The translations under genes were made by a program, and so were the position numbers. The notes beneath the pieces were generated by a model, which did no database searches, had not been told where the DNA came from, and saw only the letters and a list, made by a program, of their open reading frames with translations. A DNA stretch of 64,000 bases, taken from assembly GCA_964106915.2 (NCBI GenBank), contig OZ066919.1. One strand, written 5' to 3'. Position 1 is the stretch's first letter, and every line of letters starts with the position of its first letter. The stretch is from Podarcis gaigeae. Taxonomy: Eukaryota. Of the stretch, positions 8,691 to 64,000 are shown in pieces.

Positions 8691-9016
8691 TCATACAATA
8701 ATGAAGATATACCAAAGTGTCTTGGGCATCAGTTATAAACTATTGGAGCAATGTAGCAGTGTGTTGTGGGAGGCCAACGATGCACATTATTGCATCTTTT
8801 CTGCCTGCTTTCTTATACTTCTGAAACATAAAAAATGCAAAGAGAAATCATGTAAGAGAAGTAGCCTGCAAACAGGAAAGGAAAACGAGAGTCAGAATGC
8901 ATTATTTCTCAATATATCTTTGCCCATTTTGACATGACGCATCTACGTTTTACCATTTGGCTTCACTGGGTCACTTGCTACAGATCCTCCACCAATGGTT
9001 TGGCATATACTATATT

Positions 9017-9147
9017 CAAGGCATAGGCAAACTTTGCCCTCCAGATGTTTTGGGACTTCCATCATCCCTAGCTAACAGGACCAGTGGTCAGGGATGTTGG
9101 GAGTTGTAGTCCCAAAACATCTGGAGGGCCGAGTTTGCCTACACTTG
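9017..9147. mobile_element. Fold-back hAT-type MITE
   Basis: Inverted arms ggcaaact..ccctccagatgttttgggact / agtcccaaaacatctggaggg..agtttgcc. Confidence 0.75.
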
Positions 9148-10707
9148 CCATATTCCATATTCCACTGAGCCACAACTTCCCTGACTCACCACGACACTCC
9201 ATTCTCAATGGGTTGCTTCCAATGGCTCATATTCTCCAAACAGACAGAATCTCCCTCTGTCAGAGGAAGGAACCTTCTGTTGTCAGTAGCAGACATACCT
9301 TCAAATCAAACCCAATAGATTTTGCTACACAGAATGGTGGACTACAGAGTCACATTATCTTTCTGCATTCCATACACTGCAGCAAGCTGAAGTGAGCAGA
9401 TAGGGCATTCTTTCTGTTTCAAAGGAAGACCTTCATGCTGAATTAAGCGCCGGAATTTCATCCCCATTGGTCATCTGGCTTAATCAATGTTCTCTTTATT
9501 ATTTCTGCAGGCGGCTGCTGAAATACTTCTTTTTCCTCCTTTTTTGTGGCTCTCCTAAATTACCTCATTCTGGCATGAATACATTTGCTCCTCAACGTGC
9601 TTTTTCAAATAAAAATGGATATGAAAATTTACTTTAAAATGTTCTTTTCTCATAAAACTTTCATTAAGTGTTATTAGTAGCTTAAGAGAGGGATTTAAAT
9701 GTATTTGCGAAGCCAAGCTGTGTGATCCCTATATTAAGAACAGTGTTCTTCTGGGGACTCATATTGGTACTGGCCATTAAAAAAAAAAAAAGGACTTATG
9801 CCCTTTGCACTCTTCTTTGGTGATATTTTCTCTTAAGTACAGGTGAGGAACCTTTCTATCCAAAGCGAAACTGTTTTGGTTAGAAGGTTAAAAGTTTCTC
9901 CTTCTGTTCAACATGCATCTATTTGCTTTAAAAAGCTCAGCAAACAGAATCCCGGCCCGGGGTTGACAGTGTTGCAAGAGGAAAAGAAATGAAGAGTTAA
10001 AACCCCACAACTTGCATCCAATAGGACAAATGCCATCATACTTTCTCGTGACGATCCTGGAAGTGATCTTCTTTCTCCCTTCCAGGCTATGTCTCTGTCC
10101 TTGTCTTTGCAGTGAATTATCTCTTTAAAACCCTACACTCTTCATATAGCATTCTGCCAGTGCATGGTATATTTTGTAATAGGTCTGACCTTCTTATAGT
10201 GTACTCCTACACATGAACTTTTCAGAGTCTTATAAATCCCTTACAGCTTTATATCCACTTTGGGGTATGGAGGAAATCATTTTTGTTTGAATAACATGGT
10301 GGCCCCCTTCTTAATTTGCATATACTCTCCCTTTTCAGCCTTTATTATGATCCACACGGATGCCAACCACCAAGAAGGAATGATGGGCCAAGCAAGGAAA
10401 GATCAGAAGTCCCAGGCTCCCCCAGCAGCCAAGGCAAAAGAAGGCTATGCATCCTTGAAGGAGATCAAAGTGGAGGTACAGTACTCCTATAGCTGAGGCC
10501 AAAACATACAAGTTGTCTCAGCAAGGTCCTTGAGCAACAGGTCAAATTTTATAGGAGGGCTAGGTACTCACTGACTAGAAGCCTCACCACTTAAGTACTG
10601 CCTCCAGCTGATCTCTCCTCACAGCTGATAAAAAAAAAGTCCCCATCATAAATGGCTAGTCAGGTAGGTTTGTCTGTTTCGATGTCCAAAAAGCCTAACG
10701 AGGACAC

Positions 10708-14954: not shown

Positions 14955-15068
14955 GAAATGCTACTGATTGCATGTGGATATACAGCAGAGGTGAAAGATC
15001 TAGTGGCATTTATTCTATTAAGCCCAGAGGATCTGAGGCTTTTAATGTCTACTGTGAAATCAAAGCAG
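14955..15068 (+). CDS. ANGPTL3: ANGPTL3 exon 4 (114 bp, start of fibrinogen-like domain)
   Basis: GNATDCMWIYSRGERSSGIYSIKPRGSEAFNVYCEIKA; tag/gtaagt. Confidence 0.95.
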
Positions 15069-15617
15069 GTAAGTCCAGCTACACCAGGGACCATCTAATT
15101 CTCCTGCTAAAAATCATTATGGACTTCATTTTCTGCCCTGAATGATGTTAAGTGTTCCATTAGTGAAACATAGGAAGTTACCTTATATTGAGTCAGACTA
15201 TTGGCCCATCTAGCTCAGTATCAGTTTAACTATAGTTGGTCAATAGTTAACTAGGATTACCAAATAAAAAAATGGTGCAGTCAGTAGGATCAATTATTTA
15301 TGTTCCAACTGGGTCAGATGAGGATGCCACAACTAAACAATCATCACAACTAAACCTCTTCCAGCAGTGGACAAATGGCATGGACAACTTTCACACCCAT
15401 GCATGAAAATTCCCATGGGAGTAAATTCAATGAATACTTTAAAAATATTGTGTTTGCGCGCATGTGCACACCTTTTTTTCTATATTTAACTGCATTAAAA
15501 AGCATTCATGGGGGACACAATATGAACTGGGCCTATGTTTGCTGCAGTCCAAAACTGGGGGGGGGGGGCAATAAAGCAGGTAGTATTTATAGTTTATTTA
15601 TCTTTTTTCATACACAG

Positions 15618-18661: not shown

Positions 18662-18934
18662 GAGAATTTTGGCTGGGCCTACAAAAGATCTATTCCATTG
18701 TAAACCAAGGAGACCACATCCTGCGTATTGAGCTGGAAGACTCAAGAGCTAACCAACGTTATATTGAATACACATTCACAATGGGAGGTTCAGAAACAGA
18801 CTACACTGCTCTTCTCTCCAGGATTACTGGGAATATCCCTAATGTTCTGCCTGAACAGAAAGAAGTGAAGTTCTCTACAAAAGATCACAACAGCAACACT
18901 GAAAGAAAAGTCAACTGTCCAGAAAACAATTCAG
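18662..18934 (+). CDS. ANGPTL3: ANGPTL3 exon 6 (273 bp)
   Basis: GEFWLGLQKIYSIVNQGDHILRIELED...KFSTKDHNSNTERKVNCPENNS; cag/gtagtc. Confidence 0.95.
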
Positions 18935-19018
18935 GTAGTCTTTTTTGTACAAGCTGCTGCTTTAGTTTTTCTCATAAACGGGGGGGGGGGGGAGAGAAAT
19001 ACATTGTGGAAGATATAG

Positions 19019-19425
19019 TGTGATGGGATAATGAGCTGCTTGTGCGTAAAGCTTGATCCCTCCAGGTTTTGGCTGGTCAGCCAACCTGAGTCTCTAACGG
19101 AGCCCCCAAAGCATGACTCCGTCAGTCGCTGGTAGAATCCGACAGTGGGCGTCTACGGAACTTACTCCAACATAAAAGCTGTTTGACGGACATGCACCTC
19201 CTGGACTCTCTGCGTGACAGCTTCCGGCGAGGGGTGGGGGTTCCTAAAGGGGGTCTTGTTACCTCCTCACTGTTCTCACTGGAAGTATCCCAGAGCCTCC
19301 CCTCCGACTCCCTTTCCCTTTGAGCTCCTGCTCTCCCCCTACTGGTTCCCTCTTCTGCTGCAGAGTCTCTCCTATTCTCCTGGAGCCTTTCTACCACCTG
19401 TTCTTCCGATGGCAGTTCCCTGACA
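19019..19425 (-). mobile_element. Solo LTR, 407 bp (probably Ty3/Gypsy-type), with internal open frame
   Basis: TG...CA termini, perfect 5-bp TSD TATAG (19014-19018, 19426-19430); begins TGTCAGGGAACTGCCATC, identical to the 26197 element; strand assigned from the ORF. Confidence 0.85.
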
Positions 19426-19755
19426 TATAGCTGAAACTTTGTCTACAAAACTTATATATTCCCTGTTCTGAAAAATGAAGCATTAGGAACCAGAACCAAA
19501 TTCTGAAGAACAACTGGGTATGTTGGGTGAGGGACTGCACATCTGATTGATCAATCATGTTTAGAAACAAACTTATCTGCACTCAGAAAGCTAGCATGTC
19601 ATAGACACTATAACTTTTTTGCTCCAATATGGTATTTTATAAATGTCTATTTAATATGGAGGAGTATCCAGTTGTGTAATTTTCCACATGCATTCTGTAC
19701 TATCTTGGAAGGCTACATCTCATCAATCTCTGAACATGTGAATCACCCTCTAGAG

Positions 19756-19885
19756 CAAGGATGGATAAGCTGTGGCCCTCCAGATGTTGGTGTAACTCCC
19801 ATCCTCTCTAATGGCCATGCTGGCTTGGGATGCTGGGTGTTGGAGACCAACAACATCTGCAGTGGCACAGGTTGCCCCATCCTTG
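19756..19885. mobile_element. Fold-back hAT-type MITE
   Basis: CAAGGATGG/CCATCCTTG TIRs with perfect 8-bp TSD CTCTAGAG. Confidence 0.85.
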
Positions 19886-20404
19886 CTCTAGAGTTTCTCT
19901 CCCATATATTTCTAGTCCCTAACTGAACATCAGGCAGAATTTTAGGAAACAGAAATAGAACTAAAAAGTGAAGTGATCTGGCAAAGATCTAAAAAGAGAG
20001 CGCGTAGCACACAGGAATAACAAACTAGTGACATGATTTCCTGTAGAGCACCTCTAAGTAAATCCCCAAGAAGTGCTGGTATTCTATGCACTTTTTCCAT
20101 AAACCGGGCAAAAATGTTATTCTGAAATACCCTTTTCTGCCCCCTCCAATGTGGAAAATTCAAATTTGCAGCATGAATCAGTAAGTTATTTTAATTCATT
20201 TGCAGTTCAATCCTATTTATTTTACTTCCTCTAATAAATGTAGATAACTATGAAACTGTATAAAGTTCACTTCTGAGTGTCAGTTTTACAGAGAATATAA
20301 GTGTTTGAGATAGATAGGAGTGCTGTGGGGGTTTTTAAATCTGACACTGGGTAATTAAGTTAAAATAGAATGACTTCTTTTTTAAAAAAGGGAGGTGGGG
20401 GCAG

Positions 20405-25210: not shown

Positions 25211-26196
25211 TTAGCAGTATAACCAATCTGGTAAGCAACCATTTGCCCGGCTGCCAATGATGAGTAACAATCATCACCAGGTGGTGAATCAGGAAAACTT
25301 TACAAAATATGGTCGTTTTTTCCTTTTAGCCACCAAGTTCTAATGTTGCTTTGCATAGGTAGGCAGGCATCATGATAAAGTGACAGTGTTGGGATAATAT
25401 AGTGTTATCGTTTGTGTGTGTGTAGTCTTAACATAACAATGTTGCTGCTTAATCACTTTAAAAATATGCAACTTCTAGTTACAAAGTAGAGCTACTGCTT
25501 TGGAAAACAAGAAAATAATGTTAACACTCTTCTTTCTTTTTATTTATTTTAAAAGCGTGCCTTTAAATATTTTCTTGTTCTGCATTAAAAAAGTAAGTTT
25601 CGCTCTTTCTGAAAGACCACTTGCTCGTGTATGTTTTAACAGGAAAACAGGTAGCTGCCTTATGACGAGTCTGATCACCGGTCCATTAGCAGCCTGTCTG
25701 ATCACTGGTCTATCTAGCAGCCTGCCACAGCCAGGTGCTAAGTCAGGAAGATGAGCAGAAATAACTTTCCAAGATCAACACCCAGCCTTGTGTCAAAAGG
25801 TTAGTAAGATCTGATCAGTTTGGGGACTTTACTTGTAATACCTATTTGAGTTTAATAGTCAAAAGGCAAGAAAGTAAATATTCACACAATTCTTTTCCAA
25901 AAGAAGGAATTTGGCATGATAGCAAACAATATACTGGAAGGTTAGGATTGTCAATCCCCAGAAGGGGTTTTACTTGCTTAAGGCACTGTTGGAAAAATAA
26001 CTGCTGCTATCAAGAATGACTCATAAGGCCTCTCAGACTTTGTTCCTCCTGGGGGCCGAAATCTGAGTCGTTCAGATAAAAAAACAAACAAAAAAACAAG
26101 GGAGCCAGCCACATAAACAACAGTTTCAGAGGAATAGTGGGGGAAAACGAGATTAATTTGTAATATTACTTTTCTAGTTCAGCACTGATTAGCTAT

Positions 26197-26666
26197 TGTC
26201 AGGGAACTGCCATCAGTTCAGGAGGGAGAGAGCAAAAGCCAAATGGATTATAGAGAGCCTCCAGGGATCGGCCTCCAGGGATCGTGGGAAGTAGCTCCTC
26301 TTCAACGGAGGAGAGTAAACATGCCTCCAGTGGAGAGGAGGTGCAGGAGTCGGAAGTGGCAAGGCAGTCCCAGGACTCCTTGCCTGGGAGAAGCAGGGAG
26401 GAAAGGAGTCCTCCGCTGCCCACACCCTCTTTGCGCAGAAAGCATTCGCGCAGAGAGGGGAGGTGCAGACTGGGCGTCAAGAAGCTGCTTTGCTGGGGAA
26501 TGTTTAGGAACCGCGCACTTACGGATTCTGCCAGCAATTGAGTTAGCCACGGGAGAGTGGCACTCCGAACAGATAAAGTTTATTTTGGCAGCAAAGCCAT
26601 GGATTCACAGCCAAGTAGGGAGATATTTGCCTGCTTGCTCTTGAGCAACCCCTTGGAAACATAACA
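26197..26666 (+). mobile_element. Solo LTR, 470 bp (probably Ty3/Gypsy-type), with internal frame
   Basis: TG...CA termini, perfect 5-bp TSD GCTAT (26192-26196, 26667-26671); shares its first 18 nt with the 19019-19425 element. Confidence 0.85.
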
Positions 26667-26834
26667 GCTATGGAAAAATAAGGAATTAGCTCTCTGTCCA
26701 ATGTTTGAATCTCATGGAAGCTACTCATGTGTTATAAAATGGTTTACTGGACCCACATACAGTACTGTTACTGAAAAACAAAATACTTAAACAGATACAG
26801 AAACAAAATTGAAGCCGTAGTTTAGTGGCTACTA

Positions 26835-32987: not shown

Positions 32988-33349
32988 AATGATATGGCCA
33001 CGGAAACAGGTTTTTGCATGTGCTCCTCTTGCTGGATCTGGAAATACTTATGCAAAAGGTTGCTGCATGAGCAATTTATAATACTGGATGTCTTCACCTA
33101 GCACACAGGCAAGTTTCTATGACTCCAAAAAGCATCAAAACAGATGGTCAGCACCATCAGTTTGGACAATACTGATAATCTGTGAGGAGGTGGAAGGTGC
33201 TAAATTCAGCCCAAGTTCTACATCTTCTCAGTTGGGATGGGTGGGGGTTAAGGTTGGCTTGGAACCAAAGTCCCTTCTCCCACTCTTTCAAAAGCACAAA
33301 TGGCACTGCCAAGGCTGACAGTTCCAAACATTTGCTGGGCAGCTAAGTA

Positions 33350-33566
33350 CAGTGGTGCCTCGGGTTACAAATGCTTCGGGTTACAAACTCTGCTAACCCA
33401 GAAGTAGTACCTCAGGTTGAGAACTTTGCCCCAGGATGAGAACAGAAATTGCAGGCCGGCGGCAGTGGGAAGCCCCATTAGTGAAAGCACGCCTCAGGTT
33501 AAGAACGGTTTCAGGTTAAGAACGGATCTCCGGAACGAATTAAGTTCATAACCTAAGGTACCACTG
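33350..33566 (+). mobile_element. Tigger/pogo-like MITE, family A
   Basis: TA-CAGTGGT(G/A)CCT...AGGTACCACTG-TA; same family as 63556. Confidence 0.85.
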
Positions 33567-34680
33567 TATGCAGATCAGCTAACCTCAACCTGGTATCCTT
33601 CAGATGTTCTGGACTGCAATTCCCATTATCCCTAGGAACCAGGGAAATGGGTTGAGGAAGGTTGCATAGGATGTCATAGCTAGTGTGGTTAGGTTTTGGA
33701 AGCAGGAAATTTTCTATAAAATAATTCTTCTCACACTGTCCAAATCTCATTTGGGCCCAGATTACATTGCAAACAGCCATTTCACAAACTAACTGGCAGG
33801 GGAATGATCTAAAAAGGAGCACAATATATGACGGCACCTGGCCTGTGACATATGACAAGCTATTTTTCTGGCTTATTTATCTTGCTCATGTCCTTTTCCT
33901 TCTCACAGACCAAAAACTTAGCACCATTTTCAACAAATGACTGCTAGCTAGGCTCATCTCATTGAGTTTACAAGCATTAATGTGCAAGTGCAAGCTCTTT
34001 GAGGTAGATTGCATGGTGTTAATCTTTTTCTCTTTTCTTGTAAAAATCAACTACTGTGAATATATGCAGATTCTGGCTTCAGAAGGTATGCAATGAGACG
34101 TGTGCAAAATTTGAGAACAGAATCTCCTCTTAAAGCTGCTGTCAATGAGGCTTCCCTCTTGCTTCGGCAATTTGGGAAAACGCAACGTGAATCTCAATCT
34201 TAACATATTTCCCATGGCATTAGGAAGCTTTTTTCTTCTTCAAAAATTATATTGCATAGTGAACATCTTAAGTGCCTCCCCCAGGCTAAGGCATTGTTCT
34301 ATATTGCCCTATCTGCTTTCAGAGTTCAGTAATGTTACAAGTCTAGGGCAAGAAAGGTCAAAGCAAGAATTGTCTTTGAACAGACTCTATATCTTAGTAT
34401 CAAAAACCAAACTTCTGGAGATTGAACTCTTCAATTTGAGAATGACTAAATTCAGCCAGCAAAAGGAAATGGCAACACTAAGCAGGGTCATTCTGTAATT
34501 TGATTTTCACACGATTTGTAGTTTTCCTTTCAGTTTTCCCTATTGAGGAAGGATAAAATAAACACAGTACTAGCAAAATGCAACCAGGTGATATTTTTTC
34601 TTATTTTATTGTTATATGGGCACAGAAACTTTAGCTTACTTGTGCCAGGGGATAATACACTTTTCCGAGATAAAGATTCA

Positions 34681-41882: not shown

Positions 41883-42127
41883 CAGGCGAGGGTAATCTCT
41901 GGCCCTCCAGTTGTTGCTGAACTACAACTCCCATAATCCATGGCTGTGCTTGCTAGGGATGATGGGAGTTGTAGCCCAGCAACATCTGGAACACCAAAGG
42001 TTTCCATGCCTACTATGTATGTTGCTGAATTACAACTCCCATCTCTCCTGACTATTGGCCATGCTTGATGGGGCTTAATGGAGTTGAAGTCCAATAACAT
42101 CTGGAGGAACACAAATTCTCAAATCCT
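41883..42127. mobile_element. Two adjacent fold-back hAT-type MITE units
   Basis: Two copies of tgttgctgaa(c/t)tacaactcccat...aacatctgga. Confidence 0.65.
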
Positions 42128-43758
42128 GCTCTACTATATAAATCAGAAAGCTCCAAAGGTAAATGTCTAGGAGCCACCATTATTATAGCAGACAATAGTG
42201 TCTGTCAGCAGTGCTGGCTATATTGGGATAAACCTATATGTGTTCTGACAATCAAGGCAGTTGCAATATTGTGATCATTCTAGCCTATTATTCTCAGAGT
42301 TGCCCATCCCCAAAGTGTTACCATTTTCCCGGAAGCCAAATTAAAATTATTCTTTCTGTATGTGATCTTGATGGGTATGTGACAACTCTCCGCCCTTCCT
42401 CCTCTATTTCACCTGCACATCTGAAGAGCGTATCACTGGGACTACTAATGACAACTCTTGGGGAATATGTACATTTATTCTGGCCTCCTGAGAAGCTGAC
42501 AGCACTCTCCTGTCTCACTGCAGTCTCCATTCTGACTGCAAAGAAGGGTGGGTGACAAAAGGCTTATGGGTGGAACCAGACATGACACGGAGCACAAGGG
42601 GTTGCCAAATGGAATAGATTGCCCATAATAGGGCTGTCTGGCTAGGATTGCCTGATATGCCTGAGAAGGCCCAATAACATTAACATATTTAACATTGCTA
42701 CTGGATAATTTTACTTTTAAAACATTCCATATTTTATCAGCGTCGCTCTATGCCAGCCTTAACCTTCCTGGTGCCCTTCAGATGTACTGGAGTACAGATT
42801 CCCCTCAGCCCCAGCCAGAATGGAGGGCAAAATTTCTCTAGGCAGTGTACAAATATTCTGCTCTACTATAAAGGCAGAACCAGATGAGAAACAGCGGCGG
42901 CCAAAACTGGCAAACACCATCTTGTCTACCTCCTTCTGAACCTGACCTGTTAGCCTGGTTTGTTAACTGACGTTCAGCCAAAATTACTCCAGTTCAGATA
43001 TAAAGGGAATTGTGGCTTAACACAAAGCCAGGAATGAAGTGTCAAAGTTGTCACACAGAGGGGAGGACTCATAAACCACAGTTCATAAAGTTGTGAATAA
43101 TAATCTGAACCTGCACACAGAGAAAATGACACTCCTGCACCATCGAAAGAGGGTTATTTCCTACCGCCTTCCATATCTTGTTACCAACCTTTTCCACTAT
43201 TATTATTTTCTTCTTTTTATTCCTCATCTTGGCATTTTCTTTTCTACCTAATTATATAAATCGTTTGAGTAGTTAATAGTGGCTTTACCAAGTGATTACA
43301 AAAGCGCTGGGAGGACAGTGAGCTTGGCGTATACTCTAGTCTCACGCAAAAAGGCTCTATTCTGACATAATTTATGAGTCATCCCACTGACTGCTGAACT
43401 GCTCCATTGCAAACAAACTCTCGACTGCATATGGCAAGCCCTTTCATCTAACTTGCTTCCTATAAGGATCCACAGCAAAAAGGTGGGGGGAAAGAATATG
43501 AATTGGTGACCCATACTTTCTCCATTATTCCCTCCAACACATTCAGAAAAGTTGTCTCCCCCTTTTCAGGAAGTTATCCTTAAGGGCACCTGCCTAAAAG
43601 TGATAACTGTAAAATAGCGGTACGATCTTATATCGGCTCTGAATAGTTACTGATAGCTACAGTAACCGCATTCTGAAAATCAGTCCCCCCACCCCCCGCC
43701 CAACACACACAGTTGAAGGGCATCTCTTCAAATATATAACTTTAAATATACAACTTAC

Positions 43759-43827: not shown

Positions 43828-43926
43828 CTATAGAGAGGGAACATAGCTCTAAATGGTCTCTTCAAATCACAAACATCTTATTTCATTTTAGACTGACAGG
43901 CTGAACTACCATTTAATACCCCAGTA

Positions 43927-44168
43927 TAGTGGAACCTTGGTTCCTGAACGGCTTAGTTGCCGAACAAATTGGCTCCCAAACACCGCAAACCTGGAAGTAA
44001 GCGTTCCAGTTTGTGAACATTTTTCGGAAGCTGAACATCCAGCGCAGCTTCCGCTTGAGTTCAGGAAGATTCTGCAGCCAATCAGAAGCCACACCTTGGT
44101 TTTTGAATGGTTTCAGGAGTCGAACAGACTCCTGGAATGGATTAAGTTTGGGAACCAAGATACCACTG
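43927..44168 (+). mobile_element. Tigger/pogo-like MITE, family B
   Basis: TIRs (C)AGTGGAACCTTGGTT/AACCAAGATACCACTG, TA TSD; homologous to 51333. Confidence 0.8.
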
Positions 44169-44612
44169 TAATAAATACAGCTTGCATTCTGTAAACATCT
44201 ACTACTTTTCCAGTCATCACACGTGCATACAGGTTGCCCCACTTTACTTCATTCAATGTTTATTAACATGCTTCCTCCACCTTTACGCCATAAGTTACAT
44301 GCGACACAGGGCCTCTGCTTTTTAGACTCACAGTCAATTCACTGTCTTTCCCTTTGTTTCTCAGCTAAACCAAGAATTTCAAGGGGTACAGTTCCCTTCT
44401 CCAAGGCCCCACTCTGATTCTGCCACCACTGCCATCTCTCTGTACCTGTATAACTTGTGCTTTCTTTGCTCTCAAAGCTATCCTGGCTCCAGTGTATAGT
44501 TTTGAGTGGTGAAGGAAGAGAAGAATATGGGGATTAATGGCTTCAGCCAGGCCATCTCCCATACCTGCTCAGCTGCAAGTATGGGCCAAGGTCTCTGTTG
44601 CCTAGCCCTTAC

Positions 44613-46990: not shown

Positions 46991-49900
46991 CACATGCCCA
47001 GGTTTTTCTGAGCAAAACTCTACATTCTCTTCCAAAACAAACTCTATGGAACTTAAAAAGTACAGTATTACAGAAGTAGGTCAAAAATAATTGCCTTCTT
47101 ATTCTGAGTCTTTCATTTTCTTGAAACAAAACAATGCTACACTCAGTCCAATTCTAGCAAATGAGTGCTACAAATGCACTGGTTTTATACTTTTATTTCT
47201 GGGGCTGTGTCGCTTTCCATTATACTACAAGCCTAAGCAAAAATCCTCAAGGTGACTCAGGAGAGAGACATTTCCACCCTTAGGCATCACCAAGTCATGA
47301 AAACCTGAGTACTGCCTTAGCTGCTATGTCAGCGTTTAGCGAAGCCTCCAAGGCAACACCTCCATTACTTTCAAAATCAATTCCAAATGCAAAGCAAAGT
47401 CTTTGATCTGACCTTCCGTCTCATACAGGGCTGCAAAGTTAAGACTGAATTAGTAAACTAGCTTTCTGCAAAAGAAAGGGGAAAAGGTGCTCAAGCAAAA
47501 TGGTTCAGATTGATAAACTGGTTACTGAGTGGCTGAAGACTTCAAAATAAACCCTATAAAGCCTAATACACACATAAACAAACAGTATAAACAATATAGA
47601 CCTCCCAGTCACGGTCAAGCAGTGAATATGGGAAACAGCAATACTCTTTATATGAAGCTGGAATTCTGAAGAGAATCACCTTAAGCTAAGAAGGGATGGC
47701 TGACCAAACAATGCATAAAGTTTGGTTACTCCTTAGAAAGTCAGGATTTGGTCCTAGGTAAAGGGGGTTTGATATCCCAATCTGCAACTGTGTTTGAATG
47801 TCATGCTAAACCATATTGCTCTGGCACGGCTGCAAGGAGCAGCTTGGAAGCTTCCTTTTTTTTTTTTTTGCTCCAAACAGACAATTCAAGTTGGCTTGTT
47901 TCACACAAACCATACCACACAAACCAGTAGGCACAGTTTGTCAATGGGAATGGGATGGCAGGGAGCACAAACTCAACGCCTGCCTAGCTCCATTCACATT
48001 CTGTCAAGCTATAGTTCAGCATGATGTCAAAACATGGCCTCTGCATTTGCTTACATGAATCAAGATTTTGTGTGACCATATTCTCAAATAAGCAGAGCAC
48101 TGGTCTCTAAGAGGTTTTAGACAGACAAACACTTTATAGGTGCAGCTTCAGTGCAACACTTTAAAGAGAGAGGAATAGAGGCAATAGTTGCACTCCCATA
48201 AGGAGAGAGGCCAGAAGGTCAGGAGTTCTGCAAATACAATATCTCCGGTTCAATGATGCCAAAGATTAAAATGCTAAAAATACTTTTAGGTACCAATTCT
48301 AGAGTAAGCTGCTGATGTGTTCAAAGTGAAACACATTTGCCCTGCCTCTCAGAAACACTGAATGGATATATTCATTCTGAACTGGTGATACGGTGACATA
48401 CATTTCCTGTGGAATAGATTCTGTTGCCTTTGCCCAAATTCACCATGTGATTTCAACATCTGAAATGGTCCCCCTCTCTTTTCCCATGCAAAACCTTTGT
48501 TCCCAACAGGAACACCCTCCCTCTCTCTCCACAACATGTGATCACCATAATCAGTAGCATCCCAGGCCTGTAAATTGCTAGGTTCTGCTGTTGAAGGAAG
48601 CTGGAGGGAAAGCACAAATTTGGTGTGCCACTGTGGTGCTGCAAAGCAAAACAGTGCCCTACAACCCTACGAAGACCTAAGTGTTAAACTGTATGTGAAA
48701 GAAACACAGAGATAATCAGCTACACAGACAGGGAAGAAAATAAATGGGACAAACTTTTAAACTGAGTACAAACTGATGTGGGCAGGGAATGTGCTGTATT
48801 TGGTTGTTGTTTTTCAAATCCTCATCTTCACTAAAAGAGGAAAAGATATTTCTAATTATAGACTGGCTGCCCCTCCCAGCACACTGTCATCCTTCACAAA
48901 ATAAAGTATAAATTATCATCATGCATCACGATGATCATTGGGCAACTGTATTTATTATTTCTCCATCAATCTGAATCAATTCCTGCCAAGAAAACTACCA
49001 TATATAGGGTGCCTTATTTTACAACAAAATATGGTAGGTGAAGAATGATAGGCAGAGAGCAGTAGAGGCTTGCTCAGCTTCTTACCCAACCTCCCAAAAC
49101 TGCCATTCCTGCAGCGTACTGGGAAGACAAGGGTAAGGGGTGAGGAGGCAGCAAGGCTGGTGGAGTGCAAACGCACCAGCAGAGCCAATCCAGAGCTCCT
49201 GCTAGTGTATTTGCATCATGCCAAGCTCTCCCTATCATGCTCCTGATATGCCAGACCAATGGCAGTGACAGGAGGTCATGTAAGCAATGCAGCCCCTCCC
49301 ACCACTGCTGGCTGAGAGATTCTCCAAGGGCACTCAATACTTTATACACTACAATGCACATGTTCTCATGACATTGTACAGACTTCCCTGATCTGATCTG
49401 GTACCCTCCAGATGTTTTCTACTACAACTTCCATTACCCCACCCTCACCAGCCAGTATGGCATTGGCCACTGGTGGAAATTGTAGGTCAAAACATCTGGA
49501 GAGGACACAGTATATAAAATAGTTCAGCACAGGCCACTGGGTGATACATGACTAAATATGGGCCAGCCACATTCCAAGGCAAATGCACACATTAAATTTT
49601 TGATTTGCTTATAGGGAAAGAGAGTATGACTTAAAAAGGCTAGAACAGTCTGTAGAAAGTAAGTACTGGGAGCCAATGTAGACATGATTAGAGCAATAAT
49701 GTTAGAACAATAAGAGTTAAAACAACAATGTTTCTATTTTAGGTGCAGGGTGTTCACAAACGTCCTTATTCAAGTAATGTCTTTCCTTTTATGAAATGGA
49801 AGTAAAACTGCCAACCCATTCCAGGAACTTCATAATGAGAACTGATGTCAACAACGGCTACAGGAGCTCATCAGCATCCAGAATCAGGTAAGGCATTCAC

Positions 49901-51332
49901 ATTTTTGTCCCTACACCTCTTCAGTTGACTATTATAGCATGAAGATGTAAACAAACATAAATGTCAAACCCAGTAGCCAACATTAGCCTCGCCATCTGTG
50001 CAGTCAGAAATACTGCCTAACACCTGAGTAAACAGGCAAAACATAAATTCTTGGTTATGAAGAGGAACTAGTTTGTGTCAGCTTATTGGCAGATGAAAGA
50101 CAAACGCATTATTTTAAACTCTGGCTTTTTATGGTGGAGAGGCGGAGAAATCAAGCTTTGGAAGGTCAACCTATCTCCTTTCTGGCTATAAGGGATTTGT
50201 TGGCACCGCCCTCCTGATGAACAGGTTGCCAGCTCCTATTAAGAAAACAATGTTATGACCTTTCCTCAACAAGCCATATCAGGACATGGGATATTGTGCC
50301 AGTCAAGCTTTCAAGTGCTTTTTCAAAGGAACATTGGCGAAGGTATCATTATTTTCACTGTAAAAATTGAAACCCATATAAAAGCAGAGAAACACGACTA
50401 ACGTGTAACAGGCAACAATGCTCCCAGGCAAGCTACCGTATATAAGAAGAAGAAGAAAGTGAAATTGATTCTTTTGAGTTAGATTCTTCTTGTTTCAGTT
50501 CCAGGGCCTATTCATACCAACATTTCCTGCTACAGTACAAGAAAATCTGGCACACGCTCACCTATGTCATTTTACAATCAACAGTGCATCCACTGTCATA
50601 CATCAGAAAATCCAGCTCTTAGGATGCCACCGAAAATATGCATTTATGAAGGTATGCCAAAAGTTGGCTTTTGAACATCGCAGCAGATGCATACAACCCT
50701 ACCAGCCTCACCAAGAGACAGAATACCTCTATTTTAAAATATTTTCTTTTGTAGCTACTACACACCCAAAGGTCACATGAACATGACCTCAGATAATGAG
50801 TTTTGGTCAACAATTTCTTCCTCTTAAGTATTTTTTCTTCTGTTTTGATCTTTGACATTAGTCATTCTCTTGTTATGCGATTCCAACCACACCCTATTTT
50901 TGTTAACATTCTGTCAATGGATCATGGAGAATAGTTATAGCATCAATAAGGTCTAACCACTTCTGGTGTTTATTATTATCAGTGAGCACAGCAAATATAA
51001 TTTATCCCTTTATGATTCTTGCTATGGAAAATAGTTTGTTATTTCTGCAAGTAACATTTTATTTTATACATGTTGCTCTTTATAGGGATATTTCAAACAA
51101 TTGTTATTTGTTTGGTGCATTAACTTCCTGGAATACTATTAAGTATGCTTTGTGTTTCTGGCTAAACATCTAACTCAACAAAACTTTCAGAAACTACAGG
51201 AGACAAGGTGCCACCCTGCCAGCATTCAATTTGGAAAACCGGTAAGGCACAACTTTAATCACTCTGTAAGAATACATATACCATAAAGCCTTCTGCAGCT
51301 CTATCCGTTTGAATCTCGGTACACACTCTGTA

Positions 51333-51557
51333 CAGTGGTATCTTGGTTGTCAAACGACTTGGCTCCTGAACGCCGCAAACCCGGAAGTAAGTGTTCCGGT
51401 TTGCGAATTTTTTGGGAAGCTGAACATCCGACACAGCTTCCAATTGAGTGCAGGAAGCTCCTGCAGCCAATAGGAAGCTGCGCCTTGGTTTTTGAACAGT
51501 TCCAGGAGTCGAACGGACTCCCGGAACAGATTAAATTTGACAACCAAGGTACCACTG
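51333..51557 (+). mobile_element. Tigger/pogo-like MITE, family B
   Basis: CAGTGGTATCTTGGTTGTCAAA/TTTGACAACCAAGGTACCACTG TIRs. Confidence 0.85.
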
Positions 51558-53473
51558 TGCTGCACAGAGCAGGGCAAAAATGCATTTAAATTGTAACACA
51601 ATTTAGCCTAGACATGAGAACAAGCTGCCTTGAAAGCTTAGTTCTCCTTTCTTGAAAAGCCTGTTTTAAATGTCAAAGTATTTCTATATAGCATCCCTAG
51701 GGAGAAACTGGAGTAGTTGGAACTCCATCAAGTTGTCCTCGTTGTACTGTTGCATTTATGAATGCAACAGTAAAATCAACTAGTCAAGGTACAGTCACCA
51801 CAAGGTAAACAAGCTGTGCAAGAATTACAAAATAGAGAAGCAATGGCCATTAAGTTTGGAAATTTGCTAAGCTCCTAAGGCTGAAATCCTACACTTGCTT
51901 ACCTGAAGGCAAGTCTTAACACACTAAATAGGACTTATTTCAGAGGAGACATGCATAGGGTTGAAAAGGGACACCTATCAGGTATAACTGTGCAGTAGCC
52001 TAGCACCGGAGGTCATGTTGACAGCTAAGATAATGCTGAACTTTAACTGACAACTGATTCCAACTTATTTTCCCTACACATGTATTAGGCAATGGCCACT
52101 AGCGGATGGTGTGGTGTGGCAGAGCTGTGGAGCCACCCCACCAACACCAGTCACTAAAGCTTATGTGGATGTGGACAGGGGAGCAACGACATCAAGGCTG
52201 TGCAGGCACACCAGATTGGCTGTGTGTGTTTTTCTACAGCTGTATTAAAATAACTGGGAAAGAGCTCCATCTGCAGCACCAGAACAAAGAGCCACTCATC
52301 ATGACTACCTTTGGCATATTCCAGTAATTGCAATAAACATTCTGCCTTCTTCAGCGGTTCACACCTCTTATGAGGGAACTGCCATCCTAAAGATATACAT
52401 ATATTATATCTATATAAATGTGCACCCAGCCCTTAACTAAAGTAAGATACCAGCTTGATAGATTGAGTTTATATAAACTATTATCCTTCACCCGGCTCTG
52501 TTGGGAAGCGTGCACAGGTAGAGTTAAGGTTGTCAGTGCTTGCATTATAAAACCCTGTCTCAAATGTTTATAACTGGACTGTTACAAGGACGCTCAAGCG
52601 TTTTGTCTTTAAGGCTCTGTTATTCTTCACTGTTATGTCCCCTTACTAGCTCGAAAATAAAACTCTGCTTCCTATCGACTTTGTCCTTCCCTGGATGTCA
52701 AACACAGTATTTTGCAGTATTTTAGTGCTTCCTTCAGCCAGCCAACACTTGTTTCCATTTGCTCTCCTACCTGCATCTCTGCCGTATCATCTGCTACAAC
52801 ATGAGCAATGTGTTAGCTAAGCATGTCTATCTGTTATTCCATCCATACAACACTGTTGTATTTCCTAGTGCCGTTTCATTTTTAAAGTGTCTTGGGATTT
52901 GATGCACAAGCTATTTTGTCAAGGCGGAACCAAATGTGCTGCAAGTGAATCAAAAGAACAGGTCTAAGAGCCTTTTGTTCTATGAGCATCTCAAATGCTC
53001 CAACCTACATTCTATTTTCAGTGGCTTTTATTCTGTGTGATCATTACTAACGCATTGTAGCAAAAAGGGGCATTCACAAAATAAGGAATCTGTGCCAAAA
53101 AAATTCGAGGGGATAAATTTTTCATTCTAAACCAAGCTTTTTTAAAAAAAGTAAAATATTTATTTAAAAAAAACAATTTGTCTTTACTTTTTTTAATTTA
53201 TACCTTATGCACAACTGAGATTTAAATCAAACTGAGTGTTTTCTTATAGTATGTTTTAACTGCCCTGCAGCTTTCCAAGTTTCCAAATTACTATTACAAA
53301 AGTCCTTTGTAACACCTATGTACCTTTGTAACACATAGGTGACACCTATGGTGAGTTATCTTTGATGGAATTTGCACATATCACAAAATCTCCAATATCT
53401 AATAATAGATTCTTACTGAAAATGCAAGTATCGTCAAACAGTATGTATGAACATAAGGAACTACCCTATATGG

Positions 53474-60889: not shown

Positions 60890-61020
60890 AGATGGAGAAA
60901 CTGCAGCCTCCAGGTGTTGAACTACAATGCCCAACAGCCCCAGCCAGCATCACCAATGGTCAGAGGTAATGGAAGTTGTGGTCCAACAACATCTGGAGGG
61001 CTGTTGGTTCCCCAGTCCTG
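60890..61020. mobile_element. Fold-back hAT-type MITE
   Basis: cctccaggtgttg..actacaa...gttgtggtccaacaacatctggaggg; more degenerate copies near 17100, 33590, 42770, 49400, 55490 and 60320. Confidence 0.65.
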
Positions 61021-61851
61021 CTCATATACTAAACTAGGCTTCAGACCCACCAACGAAAAGAGAGCTCACTAGCTATGAGACCTCCTCTCATTTTTGCAGT
61101 TCAAGGAAGTCAGCAAAATAAGTGGCTTCTTCTCTCATTTTGTGTTACGTCATGCCCCTCACAGCAGCTGTTTCATGTTGGGCTACAACCACCCCGCATC
61201 CCAGCAGCAGCTATTTTGTGACTGGTACCCTTAGCACTCTCTCAAAATTCAAAATGTGCCCACTGCCCCAAAAAGGTGGGCAACCCCTGAATGAGTTAAC
61301 TTTACAGCCATAAGAAGATATGATTTGCCTTAAAATCACTTTGAGTCTATTAATGGAACATGTGTAACCTTTTCTTGTGGGATACATATATTCATTTCTA
61401 GGAATTCACTGGCAGCAGGGAAAAAAATAAAGCCTCTGGAATTTGTCTACAAATTGTTACCAGGATGCAACCACAATCCTCCACCAAGAGAAAACGTAGC
61501 TTCTAATATTATCAAAGGATGGAACTGTTTATGTTACCAAAGGATATGGAATTAGTTTTCAAAGACTGTCACAAAGGAGAAAAATAATTAACCAAATATT
61601 CTACCACATTTGTGATTCAATGAGATCATTATATGCAGAGAGGGTTTTTTTCTGAAAGAAAGGCTCATTGACAGTACATGAAAAGTCCAGACCAAAAAAG
61701 ACCAAATGTAAATTTTGGAAACTGCTTTTGAAAGTCTGCACCTGCAGACTTTCAGTGTTTTTAAAAATGAAAGGTGTTTTTTAAAAAAGACACCCCTATT
61801 GTCCTTATATGCACAATTCAAGTATGTGCACTATGTTTGGAATTATGATTA

Positions 61852-62322
61852 CAGTGGTACCTTGGGTCTCAAACGCCTTGGTACTCAAACAACTTGGAAC
61901 CCAAACACTGCAAACCCAGAAGTATGCATTCCTGTTCGTGAACATTTTTCAGAAGCCGAATGTGCTCAGTTGTGAATGTTATGCTGAGGTCTGTTTGTTT
62001 TTGCTATTTATTTTGTGCTTTTGAGGGGGACTTTTTTCATTGCGGGTTGTTTTGTTTTGTGACTGTGTGGAACCCAGTTCAGCTACTGATTGATTGTGTG
62101 ACTGTAGTACATTATTGTTTTCATTTTATGGATCAGTCATCTCATTAGATAGTAAATTTCATGTTAAATTGCTGTTTTAGGGGTTGTTTTTAAAAGTCTG
62201 GAACGGACTTTTAAATCCATTTTGCATTACTTTCTATGGGAAAGCGCAGCTTGGTTTTGGAACACTTCAGTTTTGGAATGGACTTCCGGAAAGGATTAAG
62301 TTTGGGAACCAAGGTACCACTG
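61852..62322 (+). mobile_element. Tigger/pogo-like non-autonomous element, family B, long variant
   Basis: CAGTGGTACCTTGG/CCAAGGTACCACTG TIRs, TA TSD, termini shared with 43927 and 51333, T-rich core. Confidence 0.85.
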
Positions 62323-63555
62323 TATATCGTTTTTCAGAGACAGCCAACAGTGCCCTCCACATATTACAGACTACATTCCTTATCATTCCTATTCTATAGC
62401 ACCGAGCTATAAGCTGTTTCTTGTGAAAAGCTCTGACAATGTTGGCCCAATCTGCACCAGCAATATTTTTGCCAAAATACCTTCCACCATTCCTCAGTTT
62501 TGCTCAAAGTCACCCCAAAAAGCCAACAGTGGAGTCTGTAACCTCTGAGCAACTGAGTCAAAGACACCCGTAAGACCTTTGGATTTCTGACCTAGTGTTT
62601 TCCAAATTACATTTTCCATATATCCGCAGGCACAGATGTGGCTTTCACAAGTATGACCAAATTTTAAAAAAGTTATGTGAAAAGTAGCTCTTAAGAAGTA
62701 AAAAAGAAATGTAATAAAGCACTCTTTTTGGTAACATCAGCTGAGCAAGCGGCCAAAAATAAAAGCAATTCAGGCTTTGCACCGAGCCAACATATAACCA
62801 GTTGCAGACTGCAGTGAAACCTTACCACCACTAAAGATCATTGTGAATTTTGCTACTTTCCATAAGAACCAAGAAAGACAACGTGACAGAAAGGCTTTGC
62901 ATTTTGAACTGTTGTTCAAACCCATTAAAACTGGATTCTGGTAAGAATCTAATTTTACTACCGAGAATATCTAAGTATTTTGTGGAATGGTTTAATTGTA
63001 CAACATGAGCAGCTGTTCACAGCGTGAAGAAAACCAGAGGCTATAAATGGCTTGCATGGGGCCTAAGACTTAAAATTTCAACTTCTGAGATATCAATATT
63101 TCAAGAACAATGAAAACTTTTCATGGCTTCTAAATGATTGTTTTTAAAACAAAAACAAAAAAACTTGAATAAACAGTTTTCACCAGGAGTCTCAAAGATG
63201 TTTTAAGGCACCATATTTAAGAGGGGGATTCAGTGTTGGGACAGAAATCCGTACGCTGTAGGAATCAAGCTTTTAGCTCAGCACCCTCCTATTAGGGCCT
63301 ACTGAAAACCTTTCTTTTTCAGCAAGCCTTCTATAAAGTTCTTATCCCAGTCTGCATCTGAATTGGATTTGAAATTGCTTTATACAGTATATGTCTTTAC
63401 TACGTATTGATATATTTTAATTATTAAACACTTCAGGGTGTTTTCATGGGAAGCAATTCATAAATAAAAAAAAATGCATGAAAATAAATTCCAAAATTGG
63501 TTATAAAGCCTTCTCCCTGCGGATGCATACCACTACTTATGGATATACCTGAATA

Positions 63556-63781
63556 CAGTGGTACCTCGGGTTAAGTACTTAATTCGTTCCGGAGGTCCAT
63601 ACTTAACCTGAAACTGTTCTTAACCTGAAGCACCACTTTAGCTAATGGGGCCTCCTGCTGCTGCCGCGCTGCAGGAGCACAATTTCTGTTCTCATCCTGA
63701 AGCAAAGTTCTTAACCTGAAGCACTATTTCTGGGTTAGTGGAGTCTGTAACCTGAAGCGTATGTAACCTGAGGTACCACTG
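63556..63781 (-). mobile_element. Tigger/pogo-like MITE, family A (opposite orientation to 33350)
   Basis: TA-CAGTGGTACCTC...GAGGTACCACTG-TA. Confidence 0.85.
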
Positions 63782-64000
63782 TATATTTCTCTTATTGCTG
63801 CTGTTGCAAAGAAAATAAGGAATACACAGGGATCAAATACAGACAGTTCATCACTTCTGGTCTCTTCCAGCATTTTCCATTTCCCTATAAACAAAGTTAA
63901 GGACGAGAAAGGTTGACACTCTTCTTCTCCCCCCCCCCCCTTTTCCTTTGGAGTGGTCCTCTGCCATGAATAGATTCAGTCACTGCTGCCAGAGCTTGCC

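Follow-up and report, generated by a model that had tools for sequence, protein, structure and literature searches.

The 64,000-nt stretch of Podarcis gaigeae DNA analyzed here (the window) contains two solo LTRs of a lizard chromovirus, and the open frame that they carry is very probably the start-less remnant of an integrase tail, derived from an element in which the Pol frame is read into the 3′ LTR. As judged from related proteins, a single Pol frame encoding protease, RT, RNase H, integrase, SH3 domain and chromodomain continues through an acidic linker of 80-100 aa, crosses a purine-rich junction, and stops after running 100-115 codons into the U3 of the 3′ LTR. During reverse transcription both ends of an element receive a copy of U3, and recombination between the LTRs generates solo LTRs; thus each solo LTR keeps a stub of the integrase tail that lacks a start. 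We ascribe no function of its own to this stub in the window. Reading of Pol into the 3′ LTR is already known from plant chromoviruses and the relevant lizard proteins are present in UniProt, and in its core the answer is an ordinary one.

The two copies, designated LTR A and LTR B (Table 1), each exhibit TG...CA ends and their own 5-bp target-site duplication, demonstrating that they are two independent solo LTRs rather than the two ends of one element. Four runs bear on the site of LTR A. Two of these (X9 and X18, from organism E but from two studies) contain the empty site, with a contig joining the flanks through one copy of the duplication, one (X1, organism A) contains the filled site, with a contig passing from the flank into the LTR, and one (X4) is uninformative, with no bridging of the site. 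The insertion at 19014-19430 is present in organism A and missing from organism E, whose genome still has the LTR family, and it is therefore usable as a lineage marker. Contig depth over the LTR is thousands-fold above that of the flank, a value that gives no copy number but reveals the family to be highly repeated. Comparison of the whole window yielded no Pol match outside LTR A and LTR B, no junction with the element interior occurs among the loose contig ends listed, and a viral-contig scan for full-length relatives returned no matches.

Table 1. Positions of the LTRs and of features associated with them in the window
Feature	Position	Strand	Basis or remark
Solo LTR A, from a Ty3/Gypsy retrotransposon with chromodomain	19019..19425	-	407 bp; TG...CA ends; empty site elsewhere
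Target-site duplication, 5′ side of LTR A (TATAG on +)	19426..19430	.	single copy at empty site
Target-site duplication, 3′ side of LTR A (TATAG on +)	19014..19018	.	flank sequence
LTR-coded last 100 Pol/integrase codons and stop (P0001), startless in the solo LTR	19122..19424	-	77% identity to P0002
Conserved C-terminal motif (codons 58-100), made up of a Pro/basic stretch, a short hydrophobic helix (LLCW) and an acidic Ser/Asp end	19125..19253	-	
Solo LTR B, divergent subfamily	26197..26666	+	470 bp; 5-bp target-site duplication
Target-site duplication of LTR B (GCTAT)	26192-26196 and 26667-26671		5-bp flanking duplication
LTR B frame with the conserved C-terminal motif (P0006)	26254..26541	+	similarity to relatives
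14-nt tandem duplication where coding similarity of LTR B switches frame	26257..26284	+	P0032 matches LTR B in two frames
AT-rich patch of LTR B, putatively promoter-like or a non-canonical poly(A) signal	26572..26586	+	sense GATAAA; minus-strand AATAAA at 26579-26584

The frame that opens at base 2 of LTR A (19424-19125) extends for 100 codons to a TGA at 19124-19122 and contains a single ATG, at codon 78, in agreement with the original prediction of a frame of this length with no ATG before its last quarter. The in-frame host codons just upstream of LTR A provide no ATG before the first stop. Openness by itself is weak evidence for coding, as dinucleotide shuffles of LTR A retain 100 open codons in that same frame in 121 of 5000 cases and a 100-codon stretch in any frame in 1260 of 5000, and the matter is decided by homology.

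A search of longer proteins with the translated LTR A frame (P0001) returned four matches among 333 candidates, corresponding to three Gypsy proteins from Podarcis muralis (1275-1344 aa) and a contig-called fragment of 474 aa (P0005). Over its entire length (100/100 aa, ungapped), P0001 aligns with residues 1181-1280 of P0002, a 1280-aa Podarcis muralis Pol, and its identities to UniRef100_A0A670HKZ8, A0A670IL45 and A0A670K6E2 are 77, 72 and 56%, respectively. P0001 thus represents the last 100 aa of gene models of the same family that are designated 'Gypsy retrotransposon integrase-like protein 1'. These models comprise a whole Pol, with database names that are silent on the LTR-coded C-terminus, whereas the window holds only solo LTRs. 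In the relatives P0002-P0004, Pfam identifies protease, RT, RNase H, integrase, SH3 and chromodomain in that order, and a chromodomain (PF00385) C-terminal to the integrase is found in all four cluster representatives, with a match to HP1 as well.

The four clusters comprise 27 proteins, of which 24 are UniRef gene models of one species and three are Logan contig-called. Twenty of the 27 reach the LTR junction, in every case as ...G(G/E)EVD|VREL and with the order chromodomain, acidic linker, GEVD|VRELP. A complete tail is present in 15, exactly 100 aa long past the junction in 10 of them, as in the window; five others are cut within the tail and seven end before the junction. The residue preceding VREL is Asp in all 20 proteins that reach this point, which fits an Asp codon composed of GA plus a T supplied by LTR base 1, and completion of the codon by this first T would account for a frame that is open from base 2 of the LTR. 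The 12 residues before the junction are rich in Gly and Glu, and their back-translation (22-32 purines among 36 bases) fits a polypurine tract at this location. These observations bear out the proposals, made from the letters of the window, that the frame starts upstream and enters the LTR from the interior of the element, and they are compatible with its crossing a putative polypurine tract, which is deduced from protein residues. It is improbable that the junction is a splice artefact of gene prediction, since P0005 (474 aa on a contig of 1528 nt) and P0019 (1344 aa on 4419 nt) nearly fill their contigs, which would leave little room for introns.

The original prediction had left undecided whether the frame is a tail of Pol/integrase or an accessory 3′ ORF. 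A separate ORF with its own start or with a spliced message would resemble nef, MMTV sag and similar retroviral accessory genes that overlap the LTR. In its support one could cite the ATG at codon 78 of LTR A, and a separate product could also arise if the protease released the tail from integrase. However, 20 proteins carry integrase, chromodomain and this frame as one uninterrupted reading frame, and the codon-78 ATG is probably a change private to copy A, given that related tails and LTR B carry Val or Leu at this position. We therefore consider an independent accessory gene very improbable and, on the strength of the alignments, assign the LTR A frame to the sense strand as the C-terminal tail of Pol/integrase.

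A further alternative holds that the ORF runs against the direction of the element, or that it has stayed open by chance in an LTR that is GC-rich. Such a possibility had been raised by the lack of a sense AATAAA after the stop and by the AATAAA that the 26197 copy carries on its opposite strand, both of which we find as described: neither LTR A nor LTR B contains a sense AATAAA. TGT also begins both LTR strands. Nevertheless, the alignment with P0002 refutes this alternative, as RT and integrase of the relatives are encoded on this strand and in this frame, and we assign it almost no probability. Continuity of the frame with Pol in the relatives likewise fixes the polarity of the LTRs, with LTR A on the minus strand and LTR B on the plus strand; the antisense AATAAA of LTR B is not a polarity marker.

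Few other sequences resemble the tail. A protein search with the tail region matched only three Podarcis clusters, and a library-wide profile search produced five matches, one of which, the locust repeat protein P0031, was dropped as spurious. P0001, P0006 and P0007 belong to no Pfam family, P0001 has no PDB match, and an atlas search with both tail pieces gave no usable match. None of these comparisons points to a function of the tail.

The two LTRs share a nucleotide start of 15-18 nt (T-GTC-AGG-GAA-CTG-CCA-TC), located at 19425 on the minus strand and at 26197 on the plus strand. A 14-nt match to this start, lacking the TGT end, also occurs at 52373-52386 and is probably due to chance. The common start had been predicted to lie in the same frame as the conserved C-terminal motif in both copies. 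This is the case for LTR A, but LTR B is frameshifted, with VRELPS residing in the 26198 frame and the motif in the 26254 frame. P0032, a Podarcis gene model in which the LTR is read as protein, matches LTR B in both frames, one after the other. Residues 233-317 of this SEC7-domain gene model correspond to a B-type LTR read in the frame of the integrase tail at its end, which is an annotation artefact or a case of exonization. It illustrates how annotation can be misled by an abundant family in which every solo LTR carries a coding-looking stub. No Pol could be recovered for the B-type LTR, as the search returned the same four proteins as for LTR A, and read-through in the B subfamily may be supposed from the common start, motif and stop. 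We also considered whether a single TATA-like element underlies the AT-rich patch of LTR B and a T-rich patch found in LTR A, both ~90 nt from the LTR end, but the alignment does not bring the two into register, which leaves the idea weak.

The only long nucleotide similarity between LTR A and LTR B is an ungapped block of 108 nt spanning the last 35 codons. Differences within this block are distributed over codon positions 1, 2 and 3 as 14, 5 and 16 (chi-square on positions, p=0.053), and pN/pS is 0.52 in the Pol frame (Fisher p=0.025), with values of 0.72-2.16 for the five alternative frames. Of the family variants listed (40 of 108, chosen by the tool), 27 are located inside the frame; synonymous changes at the third position account for 9 of 11 variants in codons 50-100, and in codons 1-49 the synonymous share is only 3 of 16. 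Four LTR frames that are 29-42% identical to P0006 exhibit 12 invariant columns, 11 of which reside in the last ~40 aa and are centered on LLCW. A comparison of 10 distinct A-type tails reveals no gradient of invariance along the tail, with 4-7 invariant columns in every 10. A modest signal suggests selection at the protein level on the last ~45 codons, and we take the LTR part to be a variable spacer with a selected motif behind it. The motif appears to consist of a basic, NLS-like stretch, a short amphipathic helix and an acidic end. In a predicted model of P0005, a helix at residues 454-462 lies in a tail that is otherwise modelled as coil, with low confidence (mean pLDDT 43). The LLCW helix seems to us faintly reminiscent of the Groucho/TLE-binding eh1 motif, with the leading aromatic mostly missing.

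It is also conceivable that read-through is real but that the LTR part is passive. Pol would simply have lost its stop, the first 300 nt of U3 would be conserved as DNA because they include the integrase attachment end and an enhancer, and the disordered tail would be tolerated. The common first 18 nt are explicable as an LTR end, the excess of synonymous changes is small in the first 49 codons, and composition often leaves long frames, as evident from the shuffles in any frame. Against this stand the sparing of second codon positions and a pN/pS that is lowest in exactly the Pol frame, the invariance of LLCW among frames that otherwise differ so widely, and a stop located at the same end of the motif in all 15 complete tails and in both window copies. 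Taken together, we regard a passive tail as unlikely, although it deserves more weight than the accessory or antisense alternatives, and we retain the interpretation in which the distal portion of the tail is maintained as protein.

In complete relatives, which lie outside the window, 179-200 aa separate the end of the chromodomain from the stop. The portion between the chromodomain and the LTR junction is a linker of 79-98 aa, ~30% acidic, that contains two serial motifs, each composed of a hydrophobic helix, an S/T-acidic linker and (F/L/M)xGF, counting an LEGF/MEGF variant. The strict helix-acidic-FxGF pattern occurs in 20 of 20 relatives versus 103-190 of 20000 shuffles, where the 20 FxGF-bearing proteins are close kin and amount to few independent observations. 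According to the available portions of one report, TND-interacting motifs (TIMs) consist of a hydrophobic helix, an acidic S/T linker of 8-16 aa with CK2 sites, and an FxGF that is needed for LEDGF/HRP2 binding (PMC9987994). The same portions describe the TIM/IBM of JPO2, IWS1 and KMT2A, which bind the LEDGF/HRP2 TND, and the hydrophobic helix, acidic Ser/Thr linker and FxGF of these proteins are also found in the linker of the relatives (PMC9987994). Unlike those of the host proteins JPO2, IWS1 and KMT2A, the TIM-like motifs described here reside in a retrotransposon integrase, outside both the window and the LTR, and their binding is putative. The linker fits the sequence definition of TIMs, and TND binding in particular might be what the tail does, although we would rate this as doubtful. 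For the TIM-bearing protein P0029, the best 60 of 67 PDB matches include matches to the chromodomain but no LEDGF-complex chain. Lentiviral integrases bind the same host domain of LEDGF/HRP2 by means of a folded surface.

The chromodomain of the relatives departs from the HP1-like pattern. All 22 chromodomain rows (P0002-P0030) have Glu in place of the third aromatic of the cage, 11 of the 22 have Tyr at the first position, and the W is kept; the chromodomain thus lacks the set of three aromatics (Y24, W45 and Y48) that defines group I. A degenerate cage pattern of this type is assigned to group II, which is called plant-only in the accessible parts of the sources (PMC3605345, PMC3350952). The chromodomains of P0002-P0030 are therefore group-II-like and belong to an animal element.

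These features suggest a scheme in which short motifs of the tail, namely the TIM-like motifs of the linker and the basic stretch and LLCW helix of the LTR part, would replace or supplement a chromodomain whose methyl-lysine cage is incomplete. The disordered tail of ~190 aa might accordingly act as a host-tethering and nuclear-import module of the integrase, a proposal that we find quite plausible while holding it tentatively. In its boldest form, which we judge to be rather unlikely, the lineage would have exchanged methyl-lysine reading for linear-motif mimicry, with TIMs docking onto the LEDGF/HRP2 TND, which lentiviruses use as their tether, and with an LTR-coded motif that arose independently of the plant CR, thereby directing insertions by the thousands to chromatin that is transcribed. 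Should the tail serve for tethering, it would be the animal counterpart of the CR motif encoded in plant LTRs, and the TIM-like motifs would then offer a direct and cheap test of insertion-site choice by a vertebrate Gypsy element.

As comparators we used 80 distant chromovirus loci from a metagenome scan, which were matched in the integrase and chromodomain only and of which 78 have a closed frame. The frame ends a median of 6 aa after the matched chromodomain region, with at least 60 aa in only 3 of 78, and it is the tail of ~190 aa following the chromodomain that makes the lizard family unusual relative to these elements. The acidic FxGF motif was found in 0 of 80 comparators, and a candidate polypurine tract, defined by a crude pattern, in 36 of 78. 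At three comparator loci (L073, L078 and L080) the tails that follow the chromodomain measure 320, 69 and 106 aa, respectively; that of L078 resembles a PHD finger in its Cys/His pattern.

In other respects the lizard element resembles the vertebrate and fungal chromoviruses (Sushi, Tcn1-like), with which it shares the order PR-RT-RH-IN-SH3-chromodomain, the TG...CA LTR and the 5-bp duplication. Some fish Sushi-type Pol frames likewise end inside the LTR, which would lower the novelty of the arrangement described here. Sushi LTRs contain a clear AATAAA according to the part of the report that is available (PMC3601003), in contrast to the situation noted above for LTR A and LTR B. Among plant elements, the excerpts at hand describe coding in the 3′ LTR for all elements of the centromeric CRM group A, in which the LTR encodes the CR targeting motif (PMC3059260), and several beet chromoviruses (Beta Bingo/Beetle) are also stated to code into the 3′ LTR (PMC3605345, in part). 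The lizard element shares with CRM group A the layout of a Pol running into the 3′ LTR, but in the latter, as far as these excerpts go, the CR motif replaces the chromodomain, whereas the former has an animal host and keeps a chromodomain upstream, with ~190 aa after it. The lizard element works like CRM group A, and because its chromodomain is retained it is not a member of that group. No report of LTR read-through in a reptile, and none of TIM motifs in a retrotransposon integrase, appeared in the literature searched, which was consulted in part and includes few subscription papers or Repbase reports, such that these two negatives weigh little.

LTR A is antisense to an ANGPTL3-like gene and resides ~85 nt into the intron that follows the exon at 18662-18934, a position that represents one site only as data on the genomic placement of the family. 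Exons of this fibrinogen-domain gene occur at 18662-18934 (+) and at about 14960-15075 (+), and its best PDB match is angiopoietin-related protein 3 (E 3.9e-29). We take the gene to be nested in DOCK7. The window also contains two MITE-like dispersed repeat families with long inverted arms, one at 9001-9164, 19751-19889, 41891-42133, 49401-49506 and 60931-61025, and the other at 33348-33573, 43925-44169, 51315-51558, 61850-62325 and 63549-63783.
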